Origin: a virus
Lineage: Duplodnaviria > Caudoviricetes
Strand: one strand, 5' to 3'
DNA length: 58,094 nucleotides
Virus record (IMG/VR): IMGVR_UViG_3300030380_000249
Coordinates: 1-58,094 of that record
Shown here: positions 1 to 58,094 of the stretch, piece by piece
How the letters are laid out: each line of letters starts with the position of its first letter
How positions within the stretch are numbered: the first letter of the stretch is position 1
Notes under the pieces: generated by a model
Database searches by the model: none
What the model was told of the DNA's origin: nothing
Seen by the model: only the letters and a program-made list of their open reading frames with translations
Made by a program: the position numbers and the translations under genes

Positions 1-343
1 CAGGTTTCATCTGTGGGAGCCAAAGACGTTTGGCTATAGCAAGCCTATGAAGCTCGAGCAGGCGCAGAAGGAGTACGGGCCTATACTGAGACGCGCATTC
101 ACTTACAAGGCGCTCAACAGGCTTATACAAGGCTCTGCGGCGGATCAGACCAAGGTTGCTATGGCAGAGTGCTACAAGGAGGGTCTGGTGCCCCTTTTGA
201 CCGTGCATGACGAACTGTGTTTCAATGTCGAGTCCGAGAAGCAGGCCGCAAGAATCACGGAGATCATGGAGACCAGCACACCATTGAAGGTGCCGAGCAA
301 GGTCGATCAGGAACTAGGTAACAACTGGGGGGAGGTTGGCTAG
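1..343 (+). CDS. polA: DNA polymerase family A, C-terminal part (continues from 56515-58094 across the window junction)
   Basis: Frame open from position 2 (RFHLWEPKTFGYSKPMKLE...). Contains KALNRLIQGSAAD and motif C LLTVHDEL. Confidence 0.95.
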   Translation, partial: RFHLWEPKTFGYSKPMKLEQAQKEYGPILRRAFTYKALNRLIQGSAADQTKVAMAECYKEGLVPLLTVHDELCFNVESEKQAARITEIMETSTPLKVPSKVDQELGNNWGEVG

Positions 344-3995: not shown

Positions 3996-4003
3996 GACGT
4001 TTC

Positions 4004-29182: not shown

Positions 29183-29642
29183 GCTTCACATCATCGGGTT
29201 CAAGAAGGGTAGCAATCACTTCGTCATCATTTATGACGCGAACCTCTCCACCTTCGATCTTGAACCTAGACCCTGCATAACGACCAATGCACACCCACTG
29301 ACCTTCCTGACACCATGGCTCTGGGTTATCGCCAAACTTGTTGGGATCTTGGTAAGCCAACGGCCCTAGCTTCAGCACATAAGCTACTACCGTAGCTAGT
29401 GCCTCACGCTCACGGGCTTGATCAGGAATAAGAATGCCACCATCGGTCTTTGCCTTGCCTTGATACGGCATAACAAGAAGTCGCCAACCCGTAGGTTGCG
29501 GCAAGCGTTCTTTCAGGGATTTGTCGATGAGACCGGGGTCTAAGACTCGCTGGTCTGCCTCTACATAAGCAGAATCTGCGGTAACGGGATCTTTTGCTTT
29601 TGATCTGGCAACATGATCAGGAACGTATAATGTCTTCGCCAT
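29175..29642 (-). CDS. groES: GroES-like co-chaperonin
   Basis: LPQPTGWRLLV...KTDGGILIPD...V..GPLAY...GRYAG......RVINDDEVIA, the Cpn10 signature. Confidence 0.85.
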   Translation of the reverse strand: MAKTLYVPDHVARSKAKDPVTADSAYVEADQRVLDPGLIDKSLKERLPQPTGWRLLVMPYQGKAKTDGGILIPDQAREREALATVVAYVLKLGPLAYQDPNKFGDNPEPWCQEGQWVCIGRYAGSRFKIEGGEVRVINDDEVIATLLEPDDVKHV

Positions 29643-35543: not shown

Positions 35544-37257
35544 GAGCCGCTCCTGTCGGCGACAGACCCTGTATACCCTGCGACACGTTAGGACGGAGCA
35601 CAAACGGATTTACCTGCCCAACCTGTGTCGCTTGAGTCATAGGCGAGAAAGATGTCGGAAAACCACCGGATGGGAAGAACTGGAACCCAGAGCCGGGGGC
35701 CGCAGTCGTCACATCATCTACAGGCTGACAGACCCCATTCACCAACTGGTAACCTGGAGGACACGGATCCTGTGGCGATTTTGTAACGTCCGTGGTCATC
35801 GCCTCTTCAGGCTCTTGATATGAATCCGAACCGGATAAAGACGTTCCGGTGTACGCTCCCCTATCAAGTAAATCCTCTACGGTCTGTGGTGGTCCCATCA
35901 TCATGTTTTGAAGACCGGTTACGGCGTTTCCAAGAACACCCATCCCCGGTGTTCCTACCTGACCTATGACGTTGCCTTGATCGTCCAGTTCATAGCCATA
36001 TGCTTGAGAACCCATAAGATTAGCGGCTCTCACAGAAAGCGGTAGGTTTTCGCGTTGCGCTTCAGTCAGGCCGGCTAGGTTCCTTGTTACCGTAACACCG
36101 TCAGGTCTTGTATATGTCTCAAGGCCAATCGGAAGTCCGTCTCTGTATCCAGGGCGATTAGGGTCTGTAAGATCCCGTGCAAAAATGTCTGTCTCTGCGT
36201 CTACCATGTCTGGCAGAGGACCAGACACCGCTGGCGCAGCAGCTCCAGACACGTTCATAGGTGCCGTACCTGTTTGAAGTAGAGGATCAGTTCCCCGTGC
36301 TCTAGCTTCCTGATCCAAGGCAACTTGTTCAATTGGAGCAACGGACAAAACGCCTGGGTCAACTATGGCTGACGCAGTGGCGGCTTCGGGCAAGGATTGA
36401 ATGCCTACCGGAACAAGCGCCTGACGAGAAGGTGCCGCAAACGGATTCGGCGCATTAAGATCCACGCGTCCCGCACCAGCCAAACCAAGTTCTTCACGCG
36501 CTTCTACATCCGCTAAATCCTGACGAGCACCTTCGTCGCCTAACGTGGCGCGATTGCGAATCTCCTGTAATATGCTCTGCCGCTCCTCTTGCGGAGTGCC
36601 TTGTGCTAACATTCTGTTTGTTAGAAGTGTGTTATTCGTACCACTGTATGGCGAGGTCCGTAACGCTTCTGCAATCGCGTCACGGGGATTCGGTGACGGC
36701 AAAGACATGAGTTGCATCTCTGGACCCATGGCCGGAGGAGCACGAACCCCTGCCACCTCCGCCGCACGAAACGCCTCTGGTGACATGGTCGGCTGAGTCA
36801 CATCAATGTTTGCAAGTGCCGAACCCGCAGGAGCGCCAGCCAACCTGCCAGCCGCCGCCGCACGCTCTACTGCCGCTTGCTCCTTTCGAGCAACTTCCGC
36901 CGCTAGACTCGCCGCACTGCGAGATAAGACGCCGTCTGATATTTCTCTGCGAACAATCTCATCAGCATTAGCACCTACGACTCCTTGTAGCGCCAACTCG
37001 TTCATACGAGCAACGCGATCACGGGTCGCCTGCTCTCGCGCAAAATCCTGCTGCGCCATAGAACGCTCAAAGTCAGTGCCAGTCGTAACAACACTCTGCG
37101 TGCCATCACGGTTGGTAGATGTTACAGGACTGCCACTACTGTCAGTAACCGTGCCGGATCTTGCCGCCGCTTGCTCACGAGCACGCATTTCATTCGGATT
37201 AGAGCGATCTACGTTATCGCTGCCTGCTTCGTTACCGCTGTCTGCTGATTCACCCAT
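35527..37257 (-). CDS. Low-complexity Ala/Pro/Gly-rich protein, possibly virion-associated (576 aa)
   Basis: Long ORF between the acyltransferase and TerL, with a CPPGYQLVNGVC motif. Confidence 0.55.
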   Translation of the reverse strand: MGESADSGNEAGSDNVDRSNPNEMRAREQAAARSGTVTDSSGSPVTSTNRDGTQSVVTTGTDFERSMAQQDFAREQATRDRVARMNELALQGVVGANADEIVRREISDGVLSRSAASLAAEVARKEQAAVERAAAAGRLAGAPAGSALANIDVTQPTMSPEAFRAAEVAGVRAPPAMGPEMQLMSLPSPNPRDAIAEALRTSPYSGTNNTLLTNRMLAQGTPQEERQSILQEIRNRATLGDEGARQDLADVEAREELGLAGAGRVDLNAPNPFAAPSRQALVPVGIQSLPEAATASAIVDPGVLSVAPIEQVALDQEARARGTDPLLQTGTAPMNVSGAAAPAVSGPLPDMVDAETDIFARDLTDPNRPGYRDGLPIGLETYTRPDGVTVTRNLAGLTEAQRENLPLSVRAANLMGSQAYGYELDDQGNVIGQVGTPGMGVLGNAVTGLQNMMMGPPQTVEDLLDRGAYTGTSLSGSDSYQEPEEAMTTDVTKSPQDPCPPGYQLVNGVCQPVDDVTTAAPGSGFQFFPSGGFPTSFSPMTQATQVGQVNPFVLRPNVSQGIQGLSPTGAALGRQV

Positions 37258-37696
37258 GCTTCAATCTCCAAGCATTGCCCTGCCTGCCGTCAGGCCGTTT
37301 CCAGTGCGCCACATCATGATCCGTGACATCACTCAAGAATCGGCGCATGTCTCTCGCAATATACAATACACTATCAACCGCAACCATGTCCATGACCCAC
37401 AACTGATCGCCAGAAGTCCGCGAAAATACCTCTCGGCCACTATACTCCCGCGTCTCAGCCTCCTCAAATGTCATGTAACACCAAGTCGCAAAACCAATCA
37501 ACGAACCATCACGCATCCAATATCGAACCTTCCCATGCTCAATCGCAGGAATGAACCGAAAGCCAAGATCCCTGATCCGCTGGTCCCTGTACCACGGCGC
37601 ACTGTCCAACAACACACACAGCCGGCCAAACATCTCAAATGAATTTAGATCAGAATTTTTTTCCACGCCTAGGGACTCCTTTAGACATTCGTACAA
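37250..37696 (-). CDS. RTX-toxin-activating lysine acyltransferase-like protein (HlyC/TAAT family)
   Basis: L..SAPWYR....L.....PAI......IGFATW......E....SGDQLWVMDMVA pattern recalls HlyC. Start may be 37633. Confidence 0.6.
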   Translation of the reverse strand: MYECLKESLGVEKNSDLNSFEMFGRLCVLLDSAPWYRDQRIRDLGFRFIPAIEHGKVRYWMRDGSLIGFATWCYMTFEEAETREYSGREVFSRTSGDQLWVMDMVAVDSVLYIARDMRRFLSDVTDHDVAHWKRPDGRQGNAWRLKHG

Positions 37697-43052: not shown

Positions 43053-43452
43053 AGCGATTTACATCTTTGAGGATGAGAATGAAGAAGTGTGGGCATACAA
43101 GCATTATGACAACTACCCACGCGGTGCGGCTGATTTCATTGAGAATGCCAAGGAGTTCGCATGGGAGTTGCCACGTTTTGAGGCTGACGAATTTGCTGCG
43201 GCGTTTGTTGCGGCGAACAAGAATCGGCGAGGCGGCGAGGTTCGTTTGGTGAATGCCTTGTTCAAGGATCGTGATGAGATGTTGGAGGCCAATCATTGGT
43301 GTGACTATCATTATGTGATCTCAAAGCATAACAGCCAAGATTTGTGGGTTGAGATTTGGCAGATGCGTGACACTTGGAATTGGGTTCTGATTGACGAGCT
43401 TACACATACTGAAATGAAGGAGAAATACGGTGAACGTGCTATCGCTATTTGA
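43042..43452 (+). CDS. Hypothetical protein
   Basis: MGTRA...Y.HYD.YP motif. GGAGG SD. Confidence 0.65.
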   Translation: MGTRAIYIFEDENEEVWAYKHYDNYPRGAADFIENAKEFAWELPRFEADEFAAAFVAANKNRRGGEVRLVNALFKDRDEMLEANHWCDYHYVISKHNSQDLWVEIWQMRDTWNWVLIDELTHTEMKEKYGERAIAI

Positions 43453-44512
43453 CGGAATGTCATGTGGGAGGCTGGCCTTGGAAAGGGCTGGCTTTCCTAT
43501 CACCAACTACTTTGCCAGCGAGATTGACAAGTATGCGATTGAGGTGGCGAGGGCCAACTATCCTGACACGGTGCATCTGGGTGATGTGACCACAGTGGGT
43601 ACAAAACATGGTCGTCTTTTTTATGAGGATGAAAACGGTGTTGGGTGTGGCGCGGACATTGATCTGCTGATTGGCGGCTCGCCTTGTCAGGGATTTTCGT
43701 TTGCTGGCAAGCAACTCAACTTTGACGACCCGCGTTCCAAGCTCTTCTTTGAGTTCGTGCGGCTGTTGAAAGCGTTGAAGCCAAAGTATTTCCTGTTGGA
43801 GAACGTCAATATGAAGAAAGAATATCAGGACGTTATATCTGACCTTCTGGGATGCAAGCCTGTGGACATCAACTCAAACCGTGTAAGCGCGCAGAATCGG
43901 CGCCGTTTGTATTGGACGAACATTCCAGTCAAGTCTTTGCCGGAGAACAAGCATGTCTATTTGAAGGACATCTTGGAGGATGGGTTCACGGATCGGGATA
44001 AGTCGCATTGCATTGACGCGAACTACTTCAAGGGCGGCAATCTGAAATCGTATTTTCAGAAGAACCGCCGCCAGCTTGTGTTTGATTTTGACGATCAGAC
44101 GGAAGACGGATTGCAGTTGGCTGGCGAGGCAGACCTAAAGGGTCACGGCTACAATCGCCGCGTCTATCATCCGGATGGCAAAGCACCAAGTTTGTGTGCG
44201 GCATCTGGTGGCAATCTGGAGCCTAAGATTCTTCAAGTTGCGAGGGGCAAGAACCAAGGCGGCATCAAGGCGGACGATGGGAAGGTTCCCACGTTGAGCG
44301 GATCGTCATGGGAGCATAACAATTTCTTGGCAGTTGACGGTATGAAGTGGCGCAAGCTCACGCCCGTTGAATGTGAGCGATTGCAGACCGTGCCGGATGG
44401 ATACACGGATCATGTGTCGAACACCCAGCGTTATCGGATGTTAGGCAACGGCTGGACCGTTGATGTGATCTGTCATTTGCTGGAGGGCATGAGGGATGTT
44501 GCCCATCAGTAG
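43430..44512 (+). CDS. DNA (cytosine-5) methyltransferase
   Basis: Motif I LFDGMSCG, IV GGSPCQGFS, VI LLENV, VIII QNRRRLYW, IX/X ECERLQT..D.Y and LGNGW. Confidence 0.93.
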   Translation: MNVLSLFDGMSCGRLALERAGFPITNYFASEIDKYAIEVARANYPDTVHLGDVTTVGTKHGRLFYEDENGVGCGADIDLLIGGSPCQGFSFAGKQLNFDDPRSKLFFEFVRLLKALKPKYFLLENVNMKKEYQDVISDLLGCKPVDINSNRVSAQNRRRLYWTNIPVKSLPENKHVYLKDILEDGFTDRDKSHCIDANYFKGGNLKSYFQKNRRQLVFDFDDQTEDGLQLAGEADLKGHGYNRRVYHPDGKAPSLCAASGGNLEPKILQVARGKNQGGIKADDGKVPTLSGSSWEHNNFLAVDGMKWRKLTPVECERLQTVPDGYTDHVSNTQRYRMLGNGWTVDVICHLLEGMRDVAHQ

Positions 44513-46410: not shown

Positions 46411-46433
46411 CGGGCGGCGTGAGCCGCCCTTTT
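46411..46433. terminator. Terminator between convergent operons
   Basis: GGGCGGC-GTGA-GCCGCCC-TTTT. Confidence 0.65.
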
Positions 46434-46435
46434 CA

Positions 46436-47218
46436 TTAGAACAGACTCAGCTGCTCCGGTTCGCGCATGATCTCGTCTATGTCCTTGTGCATGATCTCGG
46501 TGAACTCAATGTCACAGAAGTTGCCGCAGTCAGGCATGATGAACTTCTGTTGGGCGCCCTCGTTAGACTCTAGTTCATCAAGGTAGACTCCGCGAATACA
46601 AGAGTTGCCGACTTGCCGCTCGGCCTCGGCCATGCGTTCAAAGTAGTCTGGGAAGTCTCGCCTGATCTTGTTCCAGTATCCCTTGCCGCCTTTGACGCAG
46701 CCGATGCAGTTGTTGTTGCCGTAGCCCAGCTTGTACATGGCAGGTCGTTCTATGCCGGCCTGTTCAAGGTAGTACAGGCACTCTGGCTTGGTCAGCTTCT
46801 TTTCAATCAATGGAAAGATCGGCTTGGCATCTGGGTATTGTTCTTGGAATCGGATGGCGCGGTTGACCTCCTTCTTGGAATACTCAAACCCAAAGACCTG
46901 TGCCTCGTACTCCATCTCCTTTTCGATTCGCTGCCGGACTCGTTTCTTGAGCACCAGCGTGCATCGAGCACCACCAGGCCCGTTGACGTACTTGTCTTTG
47001 GTGATGACATCAAACTGATTACTGTGCTTGTGGGACTTGGTCACCATGATGTCCCGACCATACCAATCCTCGCACTCCCGAATGAACCGCTCGTTGTCAC
47101 GGTGCGCTGTGTCAATGTGGAAGTAGATCGGGAGCACCCGATCCTTGCCGTACTTGTCTATCGCCAGCTTGGTCGCCACCGCACTGGTGACGCCAGCCGA
47201 CCACCACGAAATGATCAT
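46436..47218 (-). CDS. PAPS-reductase-family (adenine nucleotide alpha-hydrolase-like) protein
   Basis: ISWWSAGVTSAVA PP-loop-like motif, H.DN.RF, CT..LK, FPLI...C, MY.LGY.NNNCIGCVKG. Confidence 0.7.
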   Translation of the reverse strand: MIISWWSAGVTSAVATKLAIDKYGKDRVLPIYFHIDTAHRDNERFIRECEDWYGRDIMVTKSHKHSNQFDVITKDKYVNGPGGARCTLVLKKRVRQRIEKEMEYEAQVFGFEYSKKEVNRAIRFQEQYPDAKPIFPLIEKKLTKPECLYYLEQAGIERPAMYKLGYGNNNCIGCVKGGKGYWNKIRRDFPDYFERMAEAERQVGNSCIRGVYLDELESNEGAQQKFIMPDCGNFCDIEFTEIMHKDIDEIMREPEQLSLF

Positions 47219-47664
47219 GCTTCCCACCTAAACTTCAGCTGCCCATAGATTGGTTGCCAGTTCCGATTTCCGCCTTTGGGAGTCCACCTGTCATGCGGCT
47301 TAACCTCACCGACGATCTTCCAACCGGCGCCCCGAAGCGAGGATCCAGACTCTTCTTGCAGGGTATATGTGACCATGCGCTTGCCACCCATCTGTTGCCA
47401 GATCCGCCAACACCTCCCGTAAAGAAAACTGCACGAGTTTTTGGGTGCGTGATCCACGACACAAACTCTGGTAACCTCGGCTGTTAGGCCGTCATCTAGC
47501 GTGGCAGAGACAGGACGCCCCACGACAGCTACCCCGACAAGCTCGTTGTCATATATCGCACCTATCGCAAACTTCCCCCCTTGTGTCGGCTTGTTGTGCC
47601 GGTGGAAGTTCTCAACGAACTCGTTTGCTTCTCGCAGACTCAGTGGCGTAACTTCAAGTTTCAT
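47215..47664 (-). CDS. XF1762/Mom-like GNAT-fold protein
   Basis: PLSLREAN.FV..FHRH...VGVAVVGRPV....D....EVTR...YTL..ESG.SL.G.GW. Start MKLEV at 47664. Confidence 0.65.
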   Translation of the reverse strand: MKLEVTPLSLREANEFVENFHRHNKPTQGGKFAIGAIYDNELVGVAVVGRPVSATLDDGLTAEVTRVCVVDHAPKNSCSFLYGRCWRIWQQMGGKRMVTYTLQEESGSSLRGAGWKIVGEVKPHDRWTPKGGNRNWQPIYGQLKFRWEA

Positions 47665-48347
47665 ATCGCCAGTTCCATCTGGTGCACCGTCAGGTTTGGG
47701 TTCCAATGCAGGGGACACTGCACGCCATCAATCCGACGCGCCATCTTCTCTGGGTCAGCCGAAGAGTCTTTGTAGTTGCGTGCGACGTTGACGCTATCAG
47801 CCGAAGCGAAAGGCCACCGCTTGCCGGCTTGGGCAAGACCTCGAAGCATGTGAATCCATGGCAGGTGACGTTGGTGTTTGGCGACGGCGTTAAACGCCTC
47901 GTCAATCCGCTGCTCCCACTTGATTGTCCCGATCTTCCAATACTCCCCGCTACTACCGAAGCAGACCTTCGGGTAGTTGTCACACAGGTACAGTAGGTAA
48001 TCGGTGTGCATATGAAGATGCCAGACGGGGGCGCCGAATTCTTTTGGAAAAGGCCAAGTAGCAAGTTTCGCCCTGTTCTGCGTCTCGTCTCCACCTATCT
48101 CGTCAGGGATTACCGCCCAATGTGGGTGCCCGAGTCGTGGCTCGACCCACTCGTAGAATGCGTTGATGTCAAATGTCTTGCCTTGAGTAAATGCAGTAAA
48201 CGCGCCGTTATCCCACATGACAGACTGCCCGATATCCAGACAGACCTCGGCGTCACGCGGGTCAGCAAACGACACGCAGAAGTGCTTCCCCGCCATGCGG
48301 AGAAGCATCTCTCTTGGTGTTAGTGGTGTGCCGTGGTAGTGGATCAC
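47661..48347 (-). CDS. TGT/DpdA-like guanine transglycosylase
   Basis: DNGAF, PD.IG, PVWH, IHML and SADS motifs of the TGT/DpdA barrel, in yhhQ/queF-like context. Confidence 0.6.
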   Translation of the reverse strand: MIHYHGTPLTPREMLLRMAGKHFCVSFADPRDAEVCLDIGQSVMWDNGAFTAFTQGKTFDINAFYEWVEPRLGHPHWAVIPDEIGGDETQNRAKLATWPFPKEFGAPVWHLHMHTDYLLYLCDNYPKVCFGSSGEYWKIGTIKWEQRIDEAFNAVAKHQRHLPWIHMLRGLAQAGKRWPFASADSVNVARNYKDSSADPEKMARRIDGVQCPLHWNPNLTVHQMELAI

Positions 48348-48634
48348 GGCTTGTACTTGCTCATGCCGGCTTCTGAGATGATGCGTACACCAGAGTGCAC
48401 GCCCTCTACCTTCAGGTAACCTGCTGTTCCGTCACTCCACTTTTCCCAGAACCGACTGGTAAAATCCTCTTGAAACATTGGGATTTGAACTTGTTCCTCA
48501 ACCCACTCCATGAGGAGTTCTACCTGAACAAAATCCTCAACTATCCAAGTCACATCATACTTGATGATTTGCCCATCAATGGGACAAGGAATGCCGTCGA
48601 TGGAGAACTTGTATGTGTTCTGGTCAATAATCAT
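48344..48634 (-). CDS. QueF-like T-fold protein
   Basis: Small protein with CP.DG...Y...VE......FQE.FT......V.G.H.GV.I. Start MIIDQN at 48634. Confidence 0.5.
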   Translation of the reverse strand: MIIDQNTYKFSIDGIPCPIDGQIIKYDVTWIVEDFVQVELLMEWVEEQVQIPMFQEDFTSRFWEKWSDGTAGYLKVEGVHSGVRIISEAGMSKYKP

Positions 48635-49121
48635 TCTTAACTCCCAACCTGTACCACACGATTCCGGCGCCAATCATCTTGCTGACAACCATCACAAAGA
48701 ATCCGTACCAGCTAAAGAACCCAAGCATTAGCATGAACACGGCAGAGTCTACCGGTGTGCCGATGGCTGACGAGTACAGGATCCGATCCCGCAGCGGCTT
48801 CTTGGTGTAGGTATAGACCGCCCAGTCCACCAGCTCACTGATGGCAAACGCGACCACGCTGGCAACCGCAACGAAGGGGTTAGCCAGCAAGTAACTGAGC
48901 ACGGCTCCGATAGCCATGGCACCCAGCACGCGATGACCAACGTCACGCTGCGCCATGTCCCGCCATACGAAGATGAACCCGACAAGCAGACTCATAGGCG
49001 CGAACATCTCCCCGCCTGGTAACGGAATCATGGGGATGTATGTGAACCCAAAGTTCGCGATTACGATGCCCCCGATATAGAGCATCACTGATTTGTTCTT
49101 CAATGTATCGACCCAGCCCAT
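48624..49121 (-). CDS. yhhQ: Queuosine-precursor transporter (YhhQ/VUT family)
   Basis: Polytopic membrane protein with AN...G..FV.RD..Q...A.AS..AF.ISEL.DW.VY...S.....PVDS.VF signature. Confidence 0.8.
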   Translation of the reverse strand: MGWVDTLKNKSVMLYIGGIVIANFGFTYIPMIPLPGGEMFAPMSLLVGFIFVWRDMAQRDVGHRVLGAMAIGAVLSYLLANPFVAVASVVAFAISELVDWAVYTYTKKPLRDRILYSSAIGTPVDSAVFMLMLGFFSWYGFFVMVVSKMIGAGIVWYRLGVKNDY

Positions 49122-49285
49122 CCTGTGTCCTCCTCTTCAATTGTTTCGGGTTGTTTCCCGTTTCCAATGTGGATGCCACAACAACGACACTTACGCCCAG
49201 TTGGCACCACCTCTAGCGTGTCCGATGAACATCTTGGACACATGCCTGCGTCCAGCCGCCTTTGTATGATGTCGTCATCTTTCAT
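49100..49285 (-). CDS. Small zinc-ribbon protein
   Basis: CPRC...CRCC. Confidence 0.5.
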   Translation of the reverse strand: MKDDDIIQRRLDAGMCPRCSSDTLEVVPTGRKCRCCGIHIGNGKQPETIEEEDTGWAGSIH

Positions 49286-49457
49286 CACTTTTCGTCTCCG
49301 TCCTGACGCACACCGCTTCTTGATTCATTGGCATGTCTTTCCAAAGAATCCGACTTGCTGCCGAGTGACAACTCTCCACTGTCGGAAACCCCGACAGAAC
49401 TCTTGTCTCGATTCTGTCCATCTCCACGGCGGTCACTAGGACGAGGAGCCAGATCAT
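49275..49457 (-). CDS. Small exported/membrane protein
   Basis: MIWLLVLV N-terminus, F.T..SC...A.CV, ATGA overlap. Confidence 0.5.
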   Translation of the reverse strand: MIWLLVLVTAVEMDRIETRVLSGFPTVESCHSAASRILWKDMPMNQEAVCVRTETKSDER

Positions 49458-49672: not shown

Positions 49673-51123
49673 TCTCTGGCCTCCTCTCCTAATACTCGTG
49701 CACCAATATCAATCTTATCACGAAGGGCTTTGACGATCTTCTCGTCAATCGTCCCATCTGCGATCAAGTCAATATATGTGACAGGGTTTTTCTGACCAAT
49801 ACGATGACAGCGATCCTCGGACTGGATCCGAGTTTCAAGGTTAAAGTCGTTAGCATAGTAAATCACTGTGTTGGCCTCGGTCAGCGTGAGGCCATAACCA
49901 GCCGTGGCTGGATTCGCTACGAAGAATCTTGCGTTGCCATCTTGGAATCTGTCGATGGCGATCTGCCGGTCCTGATCAGATGTGTCGCCATAGTAAGAGA
50001 CCACCGAGTCCGAACCGTACACGTTAGCCAGTTCATTACGGATGTTGACGATGTCATACCGGAACCGTGACCAGATGATGATCTTACCGGACACTTCTTC
50101 AATGCAGTCCATAAGCGCGGCCAGACGTTGGGTGGGCAACTGAAGTAGTTCACCCTCATCCGTTTTGACATGGCCCGATAGCACCTGTTGTAGGCGCAGC
50201 ATCTGCGTAATCATCTGCGGTGTACTGACGAGCTTGTCGTCTTTTAGCAGTGTGATGGCAAATTCCTGCAACTCCTTGTACATGCGGATTTGCTCCATAG
50301 TCAGGGGGACATGACGCACAGTGTAGGTCTTTTCCGGCAGGTCTAGGCAGTCTTTCTTCAAGACTCGATATGTGTGTGGGTCAATACGCATGGTCAGCTC
50401 TTCCAGATTTCTGTAGCCAAGGATTTGTTGAAAGCTGTGTGCGCCCATGGTGCGCTTTTGCAGGACAGCGAAGCGCCCTTGAAATGCATAGTAGGAGTCG
50501 TATCCCAAGATGCTGGGGTCAAGAAACTGGAACTGTGAATACAAGTCCATGGGTGACTTTGTGACAGGCGACCCTGTCAACAGTCTTCTGTACTTGAACT
50601 TCTCCGCAATCTTGAGTAAGGACTTGGTGCGCTTGGCTTTATGGTTCTTGATGGTTGTTGATTCATCAATGGCTATAAGGCCAAAGCGCCCGAACTTCTC
50701 AGCCATCCACTCTCCCGCCTTCTTGCCTTTGGCTGACGAGAATGCCTCCACATTCATGACAAATATCTTTACGCCAAGGTCGCGGCTGTTGAAGAACGCC
50801 CGAACCTTATCCTTATATGTTTTGGTTTGATTTGCCTGCCAATGGCACACGGTGTGCGCGATCTCATCTGAGAAATGCTCTGGGATCTCTTTGTTGATCC
50901 AGTTGCGGTACACGCCCTTTGGTGCAATGATAAGAGCGAACTCGACCCGATCCAGAGGGTTGATTGCCTGCGACCCAAGGTAGGCGATGGTGTCAATCAA
51001 GACCTTTGATTTACCAGTACCCATCTCCATAAAGAACCCGAAGGATTCCTTGTCAACGCTACGATCCAACGCCTCGACCTGGTGTGCATATGGTTTCGTT
51101 TTGATTTTGTAGTTGACTTCCAT
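49636..51123 (-). CDS. SNF2-family (SF2) helicase
   Basis: MEMGTGKS, IDEST, LTGSP, GYGLTL and QSEDRCHRIGQ motifs. Start MEVNYK at 51123. Confidence 0.92.
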   Translation of the reverse strand: MEVNYKIKTKPYAHQVEALDRSVDKESFGFFMEMGTGKSKVLIDTIAYLGSQAINPLDRVEFALIIAPKGVYRNWINKEIPEHFSDEIAHTVCHWQANQTKTYKDKVRAFFNSRDLGVKIFVMNVEAFSSAKGKKAGEWMAEKFGRFGLIAIDESTTIKNHKAKRTKSLLKIAEKFKYRRLLTGSPVTKSPMDLYSQFQFLDPSILGYDSYYAFQGRFAVLQKRTMGAHSFQQILGYRNLEELTMRIDPHTYRVLKKDCLDLPEKTYTVRHVPLTMEQIRMYKELQEFAITLLKDDKLVSTPQMITQMLRLQQVLSGHVKTDEGELLQLPTQRLAALMDCIEEVSGKIIIWSRFRYDIVNIRNELANVYGSDSVVSYYGDTSDQDRQIAIDRFQDGNARFFVANPATAGYGLTLTEANTVIYYANDFNLETRIQSEDRCHRIGQKNPVTYIDLIADGTIDEKIVKALRDKIDIGARVLGEEAREWLKLTPKSQVV

Positions 51124-51204
51124 CCATGTCCTCCCATATGGTCTAAACATAGGCTGTCGGTACGGTTCCGTCAAGCCATCAAACCTGAAGAGGATGTACT
51201 TGGT

Positions 51205-51783
51205 ATGAGTAACGAAATAGATATCTTCGACGAAGAAGATGAAATCTTTGACGCTAGCACGCTGGAGGGCGTGCAGGCTGAGAATGGTAAACAGTTATCC
51301 GGTTTAGTTCGCCGGCTTAACGAGAAACAAGAACAAATCGACGAGACTGAAAAGTATCTCAAAGAACTAAAAGCAGAAAAACAGCGGATCGCGTTTGAAC
51401 ACATTCCTATGCTCATGGATGAGATGGGGATGGAGCGTATTGATGTTGACGGTCTAACCGTCAAGCTCAAACCATTTGTGACGGCGTCGATCCCTGCTGA
51501 CCGGAAGCAGGATGCTTTTAATTGGCTCCGTGAACATGGTCTGGACGACATCATTAAGAATGACATCATCGTGTCGTTTGGTCGTGGGCAGGATAACAAA
51601 GCTGGGGACGTAATGTACGACCTTGAGCAGAAGGGATTCCACCCAGAACAGAAGACGCACATCCATTCGATGACCTTGAAGGCGTTTGTTCGTGAACGTG
51701 TTGAGAAGGGTCTGCCTATCGACTTGGATATGTTTGGAGCGTTTGTAGCAAGAACTGCTGAAGTGAAGAGGAACTCAAAATGA
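51205..51783 (+). CDS. Conserved replication-module protein
   Basis: Coiled coil followed by AF.WLR.HG..DIIKN...H..TLKAFVRE. Confidence 0.65.
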   Translation: MSNEIDIFDEEDEIFDASTLEGVQAENGKQLSGLVRRLNEKQEQIDETEKYLKELKAEKQRIAFEHIPMLMDEMGMERIDVDGLTVKLKPFVTASIPADRKQDAFNWLREHGLDDIIKNDIIVSFGRGQDNKAGDVMYDLEQKGFHPEQKTHIHSMTLKAFVRERVEKGLPIDLDMFGAFVARTAEVKRNSK

Positions 51784-52601
51784 GTACACAAATTGCAAAG
51801 AAGAAGGAGACCGCAGTCTCCACCGGCCTGATTGATCAGATGGTCTCTGATGAGGGCGCTGGCGTAGATTTCAACGTGAATGATATGGAGGTGCCGTTTG
51901 TTCGTTTGGCGCATCCAATGTCTGGTGCGATGCAGAAAGCAAAGCCTGAGTTTATCAAAGAGCTTCGTGCTGGTGAAATTTACAACACCATTACCAAGCA
52001 GATTTGGGATCCAGAGAAGGGCATTACTGTCATCCCAGTGCACCAAGAAACCATTTACACACACAAGGCGGAAGATAAACTCATCAAACGATACACGATG
52101 GCCGACACCGAGTTGGCTACGTTGTTGAAGCGTGTGACGCGGGACGGTGCCAAGGAGTACATCAAGGACGCCAACGGTCACATTGAGAGTGAGTTGGTCA
52201 AGTCTGACAACTTCTACTGTGTAATCATTGATGATGATGGCAGCACACAAAAAGCAGTCATCGACTTCCGCTCTACCGGTCTGAAGGTCAGTCGGCGTTG
52301 GAAGACCCAGATCTCCATGCAGAAGGTACAGGACTCGCAGGGTAACTACAGGACTCCGCCGCTGTATGGTGTGATGTGGAACTTCACAGGCGTTGATGAG
52401 TCCAATGATCGAGGGTCATGGTCCTCGTGGTCGATCTCCAAGATCGGGGTCGTAGATCGTGCAGATGTATTCGCAGAAGCAAAGAAGTTCCGCGAACAGA
52501 TTATGAAGGGTGAAGTCAAGCCCCAGCAAGAGGACGAGTCTGTACAGGACTCGGCGCCGGCTGGCAACGACATTCCGTCCGCCGACGACATCCCCTTCTA
52601 A
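51780..52601 (+). CDS. Single-stranded DNA-binding protein (putative)
   Basis: Acidic C-terminus ending DDIPF, ST.LK.SRRW motif, positioned before the primase. Confidence 0.65.
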   Translation: MSTQIAKKKETAVSTGLIDQMVSDEGAGVDFNVNDMEVPFVRLAHPMSGAMQKAKPEFIKELRAGEIYNTITKQIWDPEKGITVIPVHQETIYTHKAEDKLIKRYTMADTELATLLKRVTRDGAKEYIKDANGHIESELVKSDNFYCVIIDDDGSTQKAVIDFRSTGLKVSRRWKTQISMQKVQDSQGNYRTPPLYGVMWNFTGVDESNDRGSWSSWSISKIGVVDRADVFAEAKKFREQIMKGEVKPQQEDESVQDSAPAGNDIPSADDIPF

Positions 52602-52651
52602 TCGTTGGGGCGGCAGGTAGCACGGCCTGTCGCCCCTTTTTTGCGGAGTAA

Positions 52652-54187
52652 GTGATGACATTAGTTGACCGGTTCGCTGCGGCCTTTGAAGGCTCCAGCG
52701 TAGCACACGGTCAAACAACAGTAGGTGACGTTAGGAAGAACGGAAAGACAGAGGCAAAGAGTTTCATCGTCCGAGAGCCGTTGACCAAGCATTTGATCGA
52801 CAGCCATTTGCAGGGCGAACATGGGGTTGGTTCGATTCCGATCAATAGTCAGAACATGTGTAAGTTTGGTGCACTAGACATTGATACATATCCGGTTGAC
52901 CACCTAGCCATCTTGAAGAAGTGCCGCCGTTTTAAGCTACCACTTGTTGTTTGCCGTTCTAAATCAGGCGGGGCACATCTGTTCTTGTTCATGCAAGACT
53001 GGATTAGTGCAACAGACATGCGCGACCATCTGATGGAGTTCGCTGCCGTACTCGGCTACGGCGGATGTGAGGTGTTTCCAAAACAAAATAAGATTCTTGC
53101 CGAGCGAGGTGATGTCGGTAACTTCATTAATCTGCCGTACTTCTCGGCAGATAACACATTACGTTATGCGATAAATCAAAAGGGGGATGAGTTATCACTG
53201 GAGTCATTCCTTAAAGAGGTCGAGCGTAAAAAGGTCACGTTAGAGGATCTTCGTAAGTTAGATTTTTCGACCGACGATGATGAATTAAAAGAAATGCCAC
53301 CATGCTTGCGGATCATGTTCGCAACCTCTGTGCCAGACGGCACCAGAAACAAAGTCATGTTTCATGCGGCAGTGGCCGCGAAGATGATGAATCCAGATTC
53401 GTGGGAACGTACCCTTGAATCGTGGAATCAGAAGTATTGCAAACCATCATTGCCTGCCAATGAGATCGTCACGATCCAGAACCAGCACAAGAAAAAGGAC
53501 TATGGGTATCTCTGCAAGGACGAACCCATGGGCAGTCATTGTGATAAGACGGCCTGTCGGCAAGCCAAGTATGGCGTAGGCAAGAACGGTTCAATGCCTG
53601 GTATTACCGGACTCACAATACAAAAGTCGGAGCCGCGTCTGTACTTTCTGGATGTTGATGGCAAGCGACTGGAGTTATCCACCGAACAGTTACAAATGCC
53701 TTTGCAGTTCCAACGCGCATGTATGGAGCAGCTGGATGTCATGCCGCCGATCATGAAAGCGCACGATTGGCAGGAGTATGTAAACCGGATGCTCGAGACG
53801 GCTACTCATATTGAGGTGCCCAAAGAACTGACGATCAAAGGTCAGTTTGAAGAGCTGGTTGAGGTTTACTGTACTGGCAGGATTCGGGCGCGGTCACCGC
53901 AAGAGATGACGATTGGCAAGCCGTGGACAGAGAACGACATGACAATGTTCACGATCAAAGGACTGATGGAGTTTCTACGCAATCGTGGTTTCCGCGAACT
54001 GAAGCGTCCACAAATCCAGCAGCGACTCAAGGACATGAACAGTGGTCATGACTGTAACACTACCTACAAGTTTAAAGACGAAGATACCGGTCAATGGAAG
54101 AATCTTCGCGTCTGGTTTGTACCAGAGTTTGACAACACCGAAATCGACCTACCAACAGAGGAGATAGAAAATGACATACCCTTCTGA
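52652..54187 (+). CDS. DNA primase (AEP/primase-polymerase-like with PriCT-like domain)
   Basis: GALDID, RSKSGGAHLF, INLPY, PPC...G.RN and a Cys cluster. Ends DIPF. Confidence 0.8.
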   Translation: MMTLVDRFAAAFEGSSVAHGQTTVGDVRKNGKTEAKSFIVREPLTKHLIDSHLQGEHGVGSIPINSQNMCKFGALDIDTYPVDHLAILKKCRRFKLPLVVCRSKSGGAHLFLFMQDWISATDMRDHLMEFAAVLGYGGCEVFPKQNKILAERGDVGNFINLPYFSADNTLRYAINQKGDELSLESFLKEVERKKVTLEDLRKLDFSTDDDELKEMPPCLRIMFATSVPDGTRNKVMFHAAVAAKMMNPDSWERTLESWNQKYCKPSLPANEIVTIQNQHKKKDYGYLCKDEPMGSHCDKTACRQAKYGVGKNGSMPGITGLTIQKSEPRLYFLDVDGKRLELSTEQLQMPLQFQRACMEQLDVMPPIMKAHDWQEYVNRMLETATHIEVPKELTIKGQFEELVEVYCTGRIRARSPQEMTIGKPWTENDMTMFTIKGLMEFLRNRGFRELKRPQIQQRLKDMNSGHDCNTTYKFKDEDTGQWKNLRVWFVPEFDNTEIDLPTEEIENDIPF

Positions 54188-54389: not shown

Positions 54390-55906
54390 CTGAGGAGACA
54401 CTCATCTTCGGGCCACCAGGGTGCGGTAAAACACACACGATGATTGAGATCGTGCGTCAGGAACTTGCTAACGGCACGCCTCCTGATCGTATCGGATTCG
54501 TGTCTTTCTCTCGCAAGTCCATCCAAGAAGCGAGAGAGCGAGTAAGCACCGCATTACAGCTTACTGAGAAGGATGTGCCGTGGTTCAAGACGCTACATTC
54601 AATCGGCTTCAACTGGTTGGGCATGGACAAGTCCGAGACGATACAATCGCCTGACTTTCACAAGCTGGGTGACATCTTGGGTATGCCCTTTGACCGTAGC
54701 ACTGCACAGGTTATGGAGGAGGGACTGGTGCCGTTGTCCATGAAAGAGGGCAATCGGTATCTGGAGATCATCAACCGAGCCAAGATGCGCTGTGTGAGTC
54801 TTGAGCATGAGTACAATGATCGAGCCGACTATGACTTGCATTGGAGCATGGTCAAGCGCGTGGATCAGATCTACGCAAAGTACAAGTCTGACTTGGGCAA
54901 GTATGACTTTGCGGACATGGTGGATCTGTTTGTTAAGCAAGGCACCGGCCCTGCCTTGGAGATCCTGATTGTTGATGAGGCGCAGGATCTGACACCGCTA
55001 CAGTGGAAGCAAGTTGCCATACTCAAGGAGAGGGCGGCAAAGGTCTGGTACGCAGGGGACGACGATCAGTGCATCCACCGCTGGAACGGCGTGGATTTGC
55101 ATAGCTTCATGAACGCTTGTGACAACAAGGTTATCTTGAACAAAAGCTACCGTGTGCCAGGGGAGGTGTTTGGTCTGGCAAACGAATTGGTTAACCGTAT
55201 TCATGTCAGACAAGAGAAGAACTGGAGTCCGCGTGACGCCGAGGGTTCCGTCAACTTTCACATGAATTGGTACGATGTGAACATTGATGAAGGTTCGTGG
55301 ACAATTATGGCGCGAACCAACAAATCCTTGAATCATATTCACCAAACTTTACGGGACGACGGGTATTTGTTTGAGCGATTTGGTAATTCCATGATCTCGC
55401 TTGAACTACTTGAGGCCATGAACATCTGGGAGCGGTTAGCCAAGGGCGAGACAGCCAGTGTCGGTGAGATCAAGAAGCTCTACGGCTACATGCCAAAGCA
55501 AGGCGACAAGGCGCTGTTGAAGCGTGCAGCGACCAAGACCTTTGACGCGGTGGATCCTCAAGGTTCCCACAACTACGACAATCTGGTGGCAGAGCATGGG
55601 TTGTTGGCACCTCAAGAGATGAGGCCAGAAGTCGTGGTCAATATGTCCCGCGAAGATCGCCGGTACATGGCGGCTGTGCGACGTAGGGGCGAGGATCTAA
55701 CCAAGCCAAGGATCAGTCTGTCTACCATCCACCGCATGAAGGGCGGGGAGGATGACAACGTCCTGTTGCTGACGGACTCGTCATACCCTGCGGTCAACGC
55801 ACCGGATCAGGACGATGAGCACCGCGTCTTCTACACCGCCGTCACTAGGGCAAGGGAGAATCTGCATGTCGTGGATTCGCGGTCACAATACAGGTATTCG
55901 ATATGA
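54386..55906 (+). CDS. UvrD/Rep-like superfamily 1 helicase
   Basis: GPPGCGKT, IVDEAQDL, GDDDQ.I, SYR, STIH..KGGE, YTAVTRA. Confidence 0.92.
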   Translation: MTEETLIFGPPGCGKTHTMIEIVRQELANGTPPDRIGFVSFSRKSIQEARERVSTALQLTEKDVPWFKTLHSIGFNWLGMDKSETIQSPDFHKLGDILGMPFDRSTAQVMEEGLVPLSMKEGNRYLEIINRAKMRCVSLEHEYNDRADYDLHWSMVKRVDQIYAKYKSDLGKYDFADMVDLFVKQGTGPALEILIVDEAQDLTPLQWKQVAILKERAAKVWYAGDDDQCIHRWNGVDLHSFMNACDNKVILNKSYRVPGEVFGLANELVNRIHVRQEKNWSPRDAEGSVNFHMNWYDVNIDEGSWTIMARTNKSLNHIHQTLRDDGYLFERFGNSMISLELLEAMNIWERLAKGETASVGEIKKLYGYMPKQGDKALLKRAATKTFDAVDPQGSHNYDNLVAEHGLLAPQEMRPEVVVNMSREDRRYMAAVRRRGEDLTKPRISLSTIHRMKGGEDDNVLLLTDSSYPAVNAPDQDDEHRVFYTAVTRARENLHVVDSRSQYRYSI

Positions 55907-56265
55907 TTAAGGTTCAAGATTCAAGCATTGAGGGTGTTGGTGTTTTTGCTGATCGCAACATTCTAAAGGATGAAGTGATTGAGGCCTGCTTCTATGTCGT
56001 TATAGACAATGACGATATCAAAGAGGGCAGTCGCCTTGATGATTATCTTTTTCAAAGTCCAGACAATGATGAGGACTACTACTGCGTGCTGGGCGCTGGG
56101 ATGATCTACAACCACGGATCAGATCCAAACGCTGAATGGCAGATATCCGAAACAGATAATAGGTTTCTAGAGTTCGTCGCTTTGCGGGACATAGCCGCAG
56201 GCGAAGAGATTGTTCACCATTACGGCGAGGACTATTGGGACACTCGCGAGGAGGAACAAAAATGA
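55903..56265 (+). CDS. SET-domain protein (putative protein-lysine methyltransferase)
   Basis: S.I.G.GVFA...I...E.IE, YNH.SDPNA and ALRDI.AGEEI...YG motifs. Confidence 0.85.
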   Translation: MIKVQDSSIEGVGVFADRNILKDEVIEACFYVVIDNDDIKEGSRLDDYLFQSPDNDEDYYCVLGAGMIYNHGSDPNAEWQISETDNRFLEFVALRDIAAGEEIVHHYGEDYWDTREEEQK

Positions 56266-56531
56266 AACGTGACAAGCTACTCGACACCGCCAAGGACTTG
56301 GTCAATGGGCCGAGAGCCAGAGATTATGGCGATGCCTACGAGAACCATGAACGCGTGGCGCAACTCTGGTCTGTCATACTAGAGAAAGACGTTACGGTTT
56401 CTCAAGTTTATCAGTGTCTTACGGCGCTAAAACTTGCTAGACTAATTGTTACGCCGACGCATCAGGACTCGTGGATCGACATTGCTGGTTACGCGAGTCT
56501 CGGAGGAGAAGTAGATGGCAAAGGAAAATAG
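56262..56531 (+). CDS. DUF6378-like protein
   Basis: G.R..DYG....N..R.A.LW...K.AR......H.DSW.DIAGYA. Confidence 0.75.
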   Translation: MKRDKLLDTAKDLVNGPRARDYGDAYENHERVAQLWSVILEKDVTVSQVYQCLTALKLARLIVTPTHQDSWIDIAGYASLGGEVDGKGK

Positions 56532-58094
56532 TCAGATCACGTTCCTACATAGGCTGGATCTGGACACCATAGAGAAGGACTGGGTGCCGCCGGAGGTGTT
56601 TCCTGACCTGCGGAACAGCAAGTTCATTGCCATTGACCTTGAGACTAACGATCCGAACCTGATGTCCTTGGGACCAGGGTGGGCGCGTGGTGACGGCTTC
56701 ATCGTAGGTGTAGCGGTAGCGGCTGGTGACTTCGTAGGCTACTACCCTATCGCCCATGAGGGTGGGGGCAACATCCCACAGAACAAGGTCATGAAGTGGT
56801 TGGCTGATCAGCTTGCTACGCCTGACATCCCCAAGGTCATGCACAACGCCACCTATGATGCTGGCTGGCTCCGGTGGGCAGGGGTCAAGATCCAAGGCAC
56901 GATCATCGACACGATGGTAGCGGCGCCACTACTGAACGAGAACAGGTTCAGCTACAGCCTCAACAATCTGGCTAAAGATTATCTAGACGAGCGCAAGGAT
57001 GAGAGAACACTCCGCGCTGCGGCGGCGGACCACGGCTTTGATCCCAAGGGTGAGATGTGGCGGCTCAACTCACGATTCGTGGGGGCGTATGCCGAGAAGG
57101 ATGCAGAGCTGACGCTCAAGCTGTGGAACATGTTGCATGTCGGACTCAAAGAACAGAGTCTTATGGATGTGTTCAATCTGGAGACCTCGCTGTTACCCGT
57201 TCTGTTGGACATGCGTGAGAAGGGCGTGAAGGTAAACATCGACGGTGCCGAGGCGGCAAAGAAAAAGCTGATTGGTCTCAAGAAGGATCTGGTTGCAGAC
57301 ATTAAACATGAAACAGGCGTGAGCGTAGAACCGTGGGTAGCCAAGAGCGTGGCGTCCGTCTTCGATCACCACAATCTGTACTATGAGAGAACAGAGAACA
57401 ACGGACAGCCATCCTTTACCAAGGCATTCCTGCAAGCCTGTTCGCATCCAGTCGCGGCAAAGATACTTAGGCTTCGTGAACTAGATAAGGCCAGTAATAC
57501 ATTTATTGATAACATTCTGAAGTTTGCCCACAAGGGGCGCATTCACTGCGAGTTTCATCAGCTACGGTCTGACGATGGCGGCACTGTCACTGGGCGGTTC
57601 TCCTCAAGCAACCCCAATCTTCAACAGATTCCGGCGCGGGATCCAGAGATTAAGGCCATGATCCGTGGTCTGTTCATCCCTGACGACGACTGCAAGTGGG
57701 GCAGCTTTGACTACTCAAGCCAAGAGCCAAGGCTCCTTGTCCACTACTGTGCAAGCATGGGCGCTAAGTACAAGAGTCCAATGATCGACAGCGTCGTGGA
57801 CGAGTATCACAAGGGCGATGCCGACTTCCACCAGATGGTGGCCGACATGGCGAACATCAGTCGCAAGCAGGCCAAGACCGTAAATTTGGGCATCATGTAT
57901 GGCATGGGTGTAGGCAAGCTGTCTCACACCATGGACATATCCAAGGACGAGGCCAAGGCACTGTTGGCACAGTACCACGAGAAGGTGCCGTTTGTGAAAG
58001 GCTTGGCGGATCTGGTGTCGGCACAAGCAAGTGCTCACGGCAAGATCCGCACCATGTCAGGGCGTCTGTGCCGGTTTGACATGTGGGAGCCAAA
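56515..58094 (+). CDS. polA: DNA polymerase family A with 3'-5' exonuclease, N-terminal part (runs off the window end; absent from ORF track)
   Basis: Hand translation MAKENSQITF...IAIDLET (ExoI), HNATYD (ExoII), YAEKDA (ExoIII), TGRFSS.NPNLQQIP, DYSSQEPR (motif A), RKQAKTVNLGIMYG (motif B). GGAGG SD. Confidence 0.95.
   Translation, partial: MAKENSQITFLHRLDLDTIEKDWVPPEVFPDLRNSKFIAIDLETNDPNLMSLGPGWARGDGFIVGVAVAAGDFVGYYPIAHEGGGNIPQNKVMKWLADQLATPDIPKVMHNATYDAGWLRWAGVKIQGTIIDTMVAAPLLNENRFSYSLNNLAKDYLDERKDERTLRAAAADHGFDPKGEMWRLNSRFVGAYAEKDAELTLKLWNMLHVGLKEQSLMDVFNLETSLLPVLLDMREKGVKVNIDGAEAAKKKLIGLKKDLVADIKHETGVSVEPWVAKSVASVFDHHNLYYERTENNGQPSFTKAFLQACSHPVAAKILRLRELDKASNTFIDNILKFAHKGRIHCEFHQLRSDDGGTVTGRFSSSNPNLQQIPARDPEIKAMIRGLFIPDDDCKWGSFDYSSQEPRLLVHYCASMGAKYKSPMIDSVVDEYHKGDADFHQMVADMANISRKQAKTVNLGIMYGMGVGKLSHTMDISKDEAKALLAQYHEKVPFVKGLADLVSAQASAHGKIRTMSGRLCRFDMWEP

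Follow-up and report, generated by a model that had tools for sequence, protein, structure and literature searches.

The window analysed here is the viral record IMGVR_UViG_3300030380_000249 at its full length (58,094 nt), in which a cassette of five minus-strand genes occupies positions 46436–49121. In gene order, these encode a YhhQ/VUT-family transporter, a small QueF-Like T-fold protein, a putative DpdA-type DNA guanine transglycosylase, a Mom-related GNAT protein, and a protein of the type usually labelled 3'-phosphoadenosine-5'-phosphosulfate (PAPS) reductase. We consider it likely that the cassette, a single coupled operon occupying a variable slot downstream of an SNF2 helicase gene, is a stack of three DNA-modification modules that are independent of one another. 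The importer, the small QueF-Like protein and DpdA are one conserved module, and this trio probably puts a scavenged modified guanine into phage DNA. The GNAT protein and the PAPS-like enzyme are separate modules, not add-ons to the DpdA trio.

Operon layout and gene neighbourhoods

The five open reading frames (ORFs) were called at 48624–49121, 48344–48673, 47661–48347, 47215–47718 and 46436–47227. Likely starts were chosen from the junction sequences and from residues matched in relatives: ATG at 49121 for the transporter (165 aa), ATG at 48634 for the small protein (96 aa, 48344–48634), GTG at 48347 for DpdA (228 aa), ATG at 47664 for the GNAT protein (149 aa, 47215–47664) and ATG at 47218 for the PAPS-like protein (260 aa, 46436–47218). 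The successive junctions are an 11-nt overlap, GTGA, ATGA and ATGA, and the five genes are translationally coupled in one operon. These ORFs are not chance reading frames, because the protein sequence of each is conserved in dozens of independent viral contigs. The packed, mostly overlapping arrangement described in an initial annotation of this DNA is therefore real. At the DNA level, the cassette had no match among 50,697 phage records.

The record carries a completeness rating of 100%, and polA, encoding a family-A DNA polymerase, is split over its ends (Pfam profile positions 39–278 at 56515–58092 (+) and 288–381 at 2–343 (+)). This split shows that the record, though presented as linear, is a circularly permuted complete genome.

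Gene neighbourhoods were compared in three sets of 80 viral loci, holding relatives of DpdA (56–79% identity), of the GNAT protein (69–92%) and of the PAPS-like protein (53–98%). All counts are lower bounds, since the sets share some contigs and many loci are truncated where their contig stops.

The first three genes were strongly linked. The transporter was adjacent in 69/80 DpdA loci, directly abutting DpdA (gap ≤21 nt) in 24 of them, and a hidden Markov model (HMM) of the small family was positive in 36/80. The same model was positive in 4/80 GNAT loci, 1/80 PAPS-like loci, Rhizobium phage RHph_X2_30, and 2/8 bacterial or metagenome-assembled genome (MAG) loci; all matches fell in loci with DpdA, and 0/157 loci without DpdA were positive. 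The RHph_X2_30 member is annotated as a "hypothetical protein" and lies between DUF165 and DpdA. No family member was found beside the DpdA of MED16, whose DNA is dADG-modified, or that of CAjan, even at E ≤10. In locus L087, a true QueC of 182 aa (3456–4004 (+), PF06508, 1e-41) stands between the transporter and DpdA and replaces the mini QueF-Like gene. Together with the 24 loci in which nothing lies there, this suggests that the position between transporter and DpdA can be filled by various enzymes whose target is the 7-substituent.

The last two genes assorted independently of the trio and of each other. The GNAT gene was present in 4/80 DpdA loci and the PAPS-like gene in 1/80, leaving 76/80 and 79/80 without them. 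Conversely, 76/80 GNAT loci lacked DpdA, the four others holding it with the transporter in a different gene order (L073–L076), and DpdA was absent from 78/80 PAPS-like loci. The PAPS-like gene adjoined the GNAT gene in 11/80 GNAT loci, one of these being a 23-residue remnant. Among the PAPS-like loci, GNAT was found in 10/80, DpdA in 2/80 and a C5 methylase in 31/80; in the 59 loci whose upstream sequence extends for 1.5 kb or more, GNAT was found in 7 and DpdA in 1.

The same picture emerged within one phage group, where we compared a variable slot bounded by SNF2-orf72-orf62 on one side and a ribbon-helix-helix gene with a C5 methylase on the other. Two loci whose SNF2 proteins are 96–98% identical to that of the window carry the Mom-like and PAPS-like genes without the DpdA module (L014, L015). 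Another carries DpdA and the PAPS-like gene with overlapping stop and start codons and no Mom-like gene (L174, both genes 98% identical). The order transporter, small protein, DpdA and PAPS-like gene occurs in L088, and transporter–QueC–DpdA in L087. The Mom-like gene stands alone in L012, L013, L016, L020, L022, L028 and L033; the PAPS-like gene stands alone, as SNF2-orf72-PAPS, in L177, L178, L182, L187, L188 and L192. All five genes together were seen only in the window, and each gene is kept intact without the others. In L017, which otherwise has no PAPS-like gene, the GNAT gene is followed at 4477–4545 by a 23-residue remnant 100% identical to the PAPS-like start, which looks like the trace left in the slot by a recent deletion.

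The initial annotation had proposed that the GNAT and PAPS-reductase-like enzymes might tailor the deazaguanine, and had named missing linkage of the last two genes to dpdA in other genomes as a ground for refuting this. That linkage was essentially absent from the neighbourhood comparison: near-identical relatives separate the genes, and DpdA lies near only 4/80 GNAT and 2/80 PAPS-like loci. A single pathway in which the GNAT protein, the PAPS-like enzyme or both further modify the DpdA-installed base by acylation or sulfur addition, giving an undescribed hypermodified guanine, is thus very unlikely. It draws on the shared operon with its ATGA/GTGA junctions, on Mom-like genes that adjoin DpdA modules in several gene orders (L091/L134, L073–L076, L256), and on the precedent of dPreQ1 tailored by DpdM and DpdN (PMC10516641). 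Besides the mutual absences and the divided relatives L014/L015 and L174, it is opposed by the size of the PAPS-like family (7470 close homologues), by the deposition of a solved relative of that protein together with IscS, and by the adenine N6 target reported for Mu Mom (PMC13219725). We give a similarly slim chance to the operon working as an assembly line, in which the QueF-Like protein would make an amidine or amine on DNA-bound preQ0 for decoration by the GNAT protein, perhaps with aminoacyl-tRNA in the manner of Mom, and/or by an IscS-fed PptA-like enzyme, yielding an as yet undescribed 7-deazaguanine hypermodification.

Some of the linkage data nevertheless count against independent modules. 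GNAT genes lie near DpdA in five arrangements (the window, L091/L134, L073–L076, L090/L092 and L256), more than expected for unrelated accessory genes and not fully explained by chance, and the coupling of all five genes is compatible with joint action. A similar "island" association was shown by the C5 methylase (11/80 and 31/80 loci). L256, a contig from a Rhodospirillaceae MAG, shows another order at 2062–3870, where a Mom-related GNAT gene (47% identical) is combined with DpdA and a small-family gene. The C5-cytosine methyltransferase of the window lies 2 kb from the cassette, at 43430–44512 (+) (Pfam DNA_methylase, 1e-45). Its relatives in the 31/80 PAPS-like loci are within 4 kb of the PAPS-like gene and sometimes directly upstream of it (L196, L217, L225, L243).

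The importer, the small QueF-Like protein and DpdA

The first gene (48624–49121 (-)) encodes a membrane protein assigned to the YhhQ/VUT family, as initially annotated, and is a putative preQ0/preQ1 importer. It matched Pfam Vut_1 (33.1 bits, cut-off 27.2, 9e-8) and phrog_4899 (1e-35), and shared 41% identity (E 4e-39) with gp41, the "putative preQ0 transporter" in phage CAjan's deazaguanine cluster. YhhQ itself has been described as a preQ0 transporter (PMC6884629, PMC7544227). Weaker for this assignment was the score against TIGR00697, "queuosine precursor transporter", at 23.4 bits with a cut-off of 50.95.

The third gene (47661–48347 (-)) is predicted to encode a DpdA-type transglycosylase of a "DpdA-only" clade. 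Its product matched phrog_887, "queuine tRNA-ribosyltransferase" (1e-45), found 103 phage records by tblastn, and was 35% identical (E 3e-38) to the DpdA of Pantoea phage MED16. A profile of 26 clade members aligned by hhalign over 138 columns with a CAjan-type DpdA1 alignment (E 4e-6, probability 87%), and this brought the motifs DNGAF/DSGAF, PVWH/PCFH and FASADS/YSCDSS into register. These homologies support the TGT/DpdA-like identity given in the initial annotation. The TGT fold of 47661–48347 is predicted from homology only. Against the identity, the protein had no match to the TGT and DpdA models of Pfam, to NCBIfam or to PDB sequences. Pfam gave chance-level matches only on the 26 clade members, the profiles of this clade and of CAjan-type DpdA had no matches among PDB sequences, and an Atlas look-up returned feature-level leads only (DUF6610/DpdA4 0.91, Pfam DpdA 0.90). 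For the MED16 protein, HHpred reportedly gave 99.18% to the TGT structure 2ASH, and MED16 DNA carries the deazaguanine amide dADG at ~0.13% of G (PMC8306585). The CAjan dpdA gene is genetically required for dPreQ0 (PMC7544227). The nearest isolated phages with this clade infect Rhizobium/Sinorhizobium, cyanobacteria and Caulobacter, and the bacterial contigs that carry it are mostly from Alphaproteobacteria (Microvirga, Agrobacterium, Devosia, a Rhodospirillaceae MAG). Orf48 of a Nitrincola phage, of the same length and beside a PAPS-like gene there, was considered as a DpdA and rejected as unrelated.

The TGT superfamily consists primarily of tRNA enzymes, and the transglycosylase-like protein and the importer might instead serve host or phage tRNA queuosine (Q) metabolism, tuning translation with no DNA modification. 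According to Hutinet et al., Q in the tRNA of the host may be boosted by phages that possess precursor genes but lack DpdA (PMC6884629), and some DpdA-only phages are little modified or unmodified: Orion has no modification, and 7-11 and MED16 have 0.02–0.13% of G (PMC6884629, PMC8306585). We regard this role as extremely improbable, given that the protein groups with phage DpdA (MED16 by identity, CAjan-type by hhalign) with no Pfam TGT match, and that its gene sits among DNA-modification and replication genes. In addition, QueA, QueG and QueH did not turn up in the Pfam scan of the genome ORFs, which included no search by name.

Genes for precursor synthesis were not found. Six-frame HMM searches of the whole record gave no QueC, PTPS/QueD, GTP cyclohydrolase I, QueF or radical-SAM match, with control genomes positive, and a Pfam scan of 74 ORFs gave no preQ0-synthesis family, FolE2 and other non-orthologous replacements not being searched separately. 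Because the genome is complete and preQ0-synthesis genes were not found, the "salvage-only" reading holds. The absence of any folE, queD, queE or queC gene noted in the initial annotation was thus confirmed within these searches, and a precursor-scavenging DpdA cassette, as it proposed, is the best reading of the gene identities combined with this absence.

The second gene (48344–48634 (-)) received no name from the Pfam, PHROG or NCBIfam libraries. Its family was aligned from 20 ORFs located between the transporter and DpdA genes of related contigs. Pfam found QueF in 0/20 of these, and 18/20 matched the unnamed phrog_37496, which the window's own member did not. Residues Y8, C17, P18, D20, Y26, E39, Q55, E56 and H80 are invariant. 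Against PDB sequences, the best match of the family profile was QueF-Like 5jyx/5k0p (E 2.7e-4) with the CP motif in register; C17–P18, invariant in 20/20 aligned members, aligns with the C-P of 5jyx. An AlphaFold2 model (predicted local distance difference test score, pLDDT, 90.7) shows a beta-beta-alpha-alpha-beta-beta T-fold, with strands at 6–16, 23–32, 72–80 and 83–90 and helices at 38–48 and 55–66. The top 10 Foldseek hits of this model were all QueF-Like chains (5jyx/5k0p; E from 1.9e-4, TMq 0.73–0.79), followed at lower ranks by unimodular QueF (rank 14, E 4.3e-3) and GTP cyclohydrolase I. Profile, predicted fold and structural search thus bear out the small QueF-like T-fold protein of the initial annotation.

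At E ≤1e-3 the family comprises 866 representative clusters, of which 410 remain at E ≤1e-10; it has no Pfam or NCBIfam model. The best 150 representatives are 71–154 residues long (median 84), none being long enough for a fusion with DpdA. Among them, Cys-Pro is present in 149, CPxD in 118 and Gln-Glu in 149, and the NADPH motif of QueF, in the form given by PMC10516641, in 0/150.

The closest characterized system is the QueF-Like archaeosine synthase of Crenarchaeota (Pyrobaculum calidifontis; 5jyx, 5k0p; PMC5485725). Both proteins are single-domain T-folds of ~100 residues without the NADPH motif, and the Cys-Pro nucleophile motif and substrate-anchoring Glu of the archaeal enzyme align with the small protein. 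The archaeal thioimide-forming cysteine is Cys21 (PMC5485725). However, identity is 15–16%, and the small protein is viral and linked to a transglycosylase for DNA rather than tRNA. The catalytic positions also differ, which counts against an archaeosine synthase-like reaction. In the profile alignment, the conserved Asp of the small family is at Cys+3 and Cys+7 is hydrophobic, Gln-Glu (Q55–E56) replaces His-Glu before the second helix, and the extra invariant His aligns with a Tyr of QueF-Like. We take the catalytic Asp of QueF and QueF-L to be at Cys+7. The general acid/base of QueF-L is named only as "an aspartic acid" in the covered part of PMC5485725. In view of these altered positions, the reaction of the small enzyme may be neither amidine nor amide formation.

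A related point against amidine formation is that the phage QueF-type proteins tested, those of Dp-1 and HVTV-1, gave dPreQ1 and not dG+ (PMC6884629, PMC10516641). The small enzyme could accordingly act on the free base before insertion, as QueF does, or make preQ1; DpdA would then insert the converted base and the DNA would carry dPreQ1. Both tested phages do carry dPreQ1 (PMC6884629), the tested homologues are reductases, and a DpdA2 inserts preQ1 (PMC10516641). Unimodular QueF is the second-best fold match to the small protein, and the preQ0 transport described for YhhQ fits this route as well. We nevertheless judge it unlikely. At 78–97 aa, the small protein is half the size of unimodular QueF, and QueF-Like is its best match by both sequence profile and fold. 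Moreover, the QueF-Like thioimide formed with free preQ0 did not turn over, while that with tRNA-bound preQ0 did (PMC5485725). Dp-1 and HVTV-1 have "QueF-L" candidates in which the NADPH motif is retained (PMC10516641).

The mini QueF-Like family may be the missing viral counterpart of QueF-L. No phage QueF aligned with QueF-L in the analysis reported by Cui et al. 2023 (PMC10516641), and a QueF-L-like gene has been predicted within the full pathway of a Sphingomonas phage (PMC7472734). The covered portions of the 2019, 2020, 2021 and 2023 DpdA papers contain no mention of a mini QueF-Like protein. Nor was a fixed importer/mini QueF-Like/DpdA trio found in the covered literature, the supplements of Hutinet et al. 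and Cui et al., possibly listing family members, lying outside the search.

The window shares a DpdA-family transglycosylase with the known phage systems (9g and CAjan DpdA1, the "DpdA only" group 3, and MED16). As in the CAjan cluster, a YhhQ-type transporter lies beside DpdA, and, as proposed for "DpdA only" phages, the precursor would come from the host or the exterior, with restriction evasion as the likely role. For 76 such phages, Hutinet et al. 2019 considered that a host or imported precursor may be used (PMC6884629). The window differs from the known systems in that no folE, queD, queE or queC was found and a QueF-Like protein of ~80–96 aa is wedged between the transporter and DpdA. 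The transporter is also fixed beside DpdA in most relatives of the window, in contrast to the 2019 survey, where YhhQ homologues are reported "with no correlation" to any phage group (PMC6884629).

In the mechanism that we favour for the trio, the VUT importer would bring in a free 7-deazaguanine base, most likely preQ0, unless the host pool is used. DpdA would exchange guanine for this base in phage DNA after replication. The conserved Cys of the QueF-Like protein would then attack the nitrile to form a thioimide, and conversion would proceed without NADPH. By analogy with QueF-Like, the product would most likely be an amidine (2'-deoxyarchaeosine, dG+) or, failing that, an amide (dADG).

The GNAT and PAPS-like enzymes

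The fourth gene (47215–47664 (-)) was assigned by sequence to the XF1762 family. Its product matched NCBIfam XF1762_fam (NF045478) with 181.2 bits (cut-off 50, 9e-54) over profile positions 2–143 of 143, and phrog_1384 at 4e-42. Pfam Mom was matched above its cut-off (34.8 bits, 2.5e-8) but only at profile positions 2–99 of 202, and the helix-turn-helix (HTH)-like insertion of full-length Mom lies outside the matched part. PDB sequences gave chance-level matches only at E ≤1. Since the protein is shorter than Mom and its match to the Mom profile is confined to the first half, we file it as a putative Mom-related member of XF1762, in line with the initial label of XF1762/Mom-like GNAT. Like Mom of phage Mu, it has a GNAT-type fold family, occurs in phages and is often found beside DNA methylases, but it has 149 aa instead of ~230 and belongs to a separate family. 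Mu Mom reportedly carries out a glycyl-tRNA(Gly)-dependent modification of adenine N6, carbamoylmethylation (PMC13219725, PMC7261163), and needs the HTH-like insertion at residues ~175–209 (PMC13219725).

The fifth gene (46436–47218 (-)) has been given the usual label of its family. Its product matched Pfam PAPS_reduct (27.5 bits, 3.6e-6) and phrog_424 (3e-46), and its model (pLDDT 85) loosely resembled PAPS/APS reductases and [4Fe-4S] sulfurtransferases in Foldseek, with CysH structures at TM ≤0.48; the fold library ends in April 2026 and predates PDB entry 21fy. The best match by sequence was 21fy_C, "PptA" (E 3.4e-57, residues 5–239), and the PADLOC SspD model was also matched (1.7e-9). The E. 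coli IscS sequence is present in exactly two PDB entries, 1p3w and 21fy, indicating that PptA was solved together with a host cysteine desulfurase. The C-terminal cysteine pattern NNNCIGC...CGNFC was invariant in 22 aligned homologues, and the 7470 homologues at E ≤1e-10 form a very large stand-alone phage family.

A CysH-type PAPS reductase was rejected as an identity for this protein: the translation has no ECG string, and the best relatives are PptA and SspD. The C-terminal catalytic cysteine motif of CysH is, we assume, ECGLH. The initial description as "PAPS-reductase-like" therefore stands with respect to the Pfam family and general fold, but not as regards the closest relatives or the CysH motif. 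By homology, the protein is predicted to be a PptA/SspD-like sulfur-transfer enzyme. It shares the PP-loop ATP-pyrophosphatase fold and conserved C-terminal cysteines with PptA (21fy) and with SspD/DndC of DNA phosphorothioation. Unlike phosphorothioation systems, it is a lone enzyme, as the genome encodes neither SspA/B/C nor DndA/D/E partners; its PP-loop reads SAGVTS. A literature search for PptA returned nothing relevant, including no paper for 21fy in the sources covered. No link of DpdA with Mom-like or PAPS-like genes was found in the covered literature either, supplements lying outside the search.

In the stacked arrangement of independent modules, the XF1762/Mom-related GNAT protein (module 2) would act on DNA by its own route. 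The PptA/SspD-like enzyme (module 3) would also act on DNA by its own route, probably drawing sulfur from host IscS. Together with the nearby C5-cytosine methylase, the three modules could provide layered protection from restriction. We infer which substrate is imported, how the small enzyme reacts, that modules 2 and 3 target DNA, and that the system counters restriction; a caveat for all of these points is that the phage is uncultured and known here from sequence alone.

Neighbouring features and significance

The upstream edge of the variable slot is formed by a 62-aa ORF at 49100–49288 (-) with a zinc-ribbon-like pattern (CPRC...CRCC), which overlaps the transporter start by 22 nt. It had tblastn matches at the same position in relatives L011–L015 and L088; Pfam and PHROG gave no match. 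At the other end of the cassette, a GC-rich hairpin (7 G-C pairs) followed by a T-run lies at 46412–46429 (+), with the tail TTTTCATTAG, between converging transcription units. This is a pattern match only, and a promoter and terminator scan of the region gave no more sites than shuffled sequences.

Divergently from the SNF2 helicase and cassette operon, a block at 51082–54187 (+) encodes Pam3 gp33-like and gp34-like proteins, then a "TOTE conflict system"-type archaeo-eukaryotic primase (PF22548, 7.5e-16). The genes for a UvrD-like helicase and the DNA polymerase flank that of a SET-domain protein (55903–56265 (+), Pfam SET, 4.6e-14), and its lysine-methyltransferase fold is an uncommon one for the replication module of a phage. 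A 148-aa protein at 37250–37696 (-), heading the structural and packaging block, matches the family of RTX-toxin-activating acyltransferases (Pfam HlyC, 2.1e-11); no toxin gene was seen in its vicinity. Among the head genes, a Cpn10/GroES-domain protein at 29175–29642 (-) (1.2e-9) may serve the phage as a co-chaperonin.

Phages with 7-deazaguanine modifications in their DNA escape restriction enzymes and some CRISPR nucleases, and such modifications also supply new chemistry of nucleic acids. Surveys in the literature list many phages as "DpdA only", with a modification status that cannot be predicted. Our data indicate a large clade of such phages with a fixed importer–DpdA pair, about half of which add a QueF-Like enzyme of 80–96 aa. 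If the proposed role is correct, this mini QueF-Like protein would be the first relative of archaeosine synthase found to be viral and to act on DNA, and the changes at its catalytic residues could mean new nitrile chemistry. The trio offers a simple three-gene construct for testing which base reaches DNA. More broadly, in a group of marine phages, deazaguanine, Mom-like, sulfur-transfer and C5-methylase genes are shuffled within a single slot, which warns against taking operon neighbours for a pathway.

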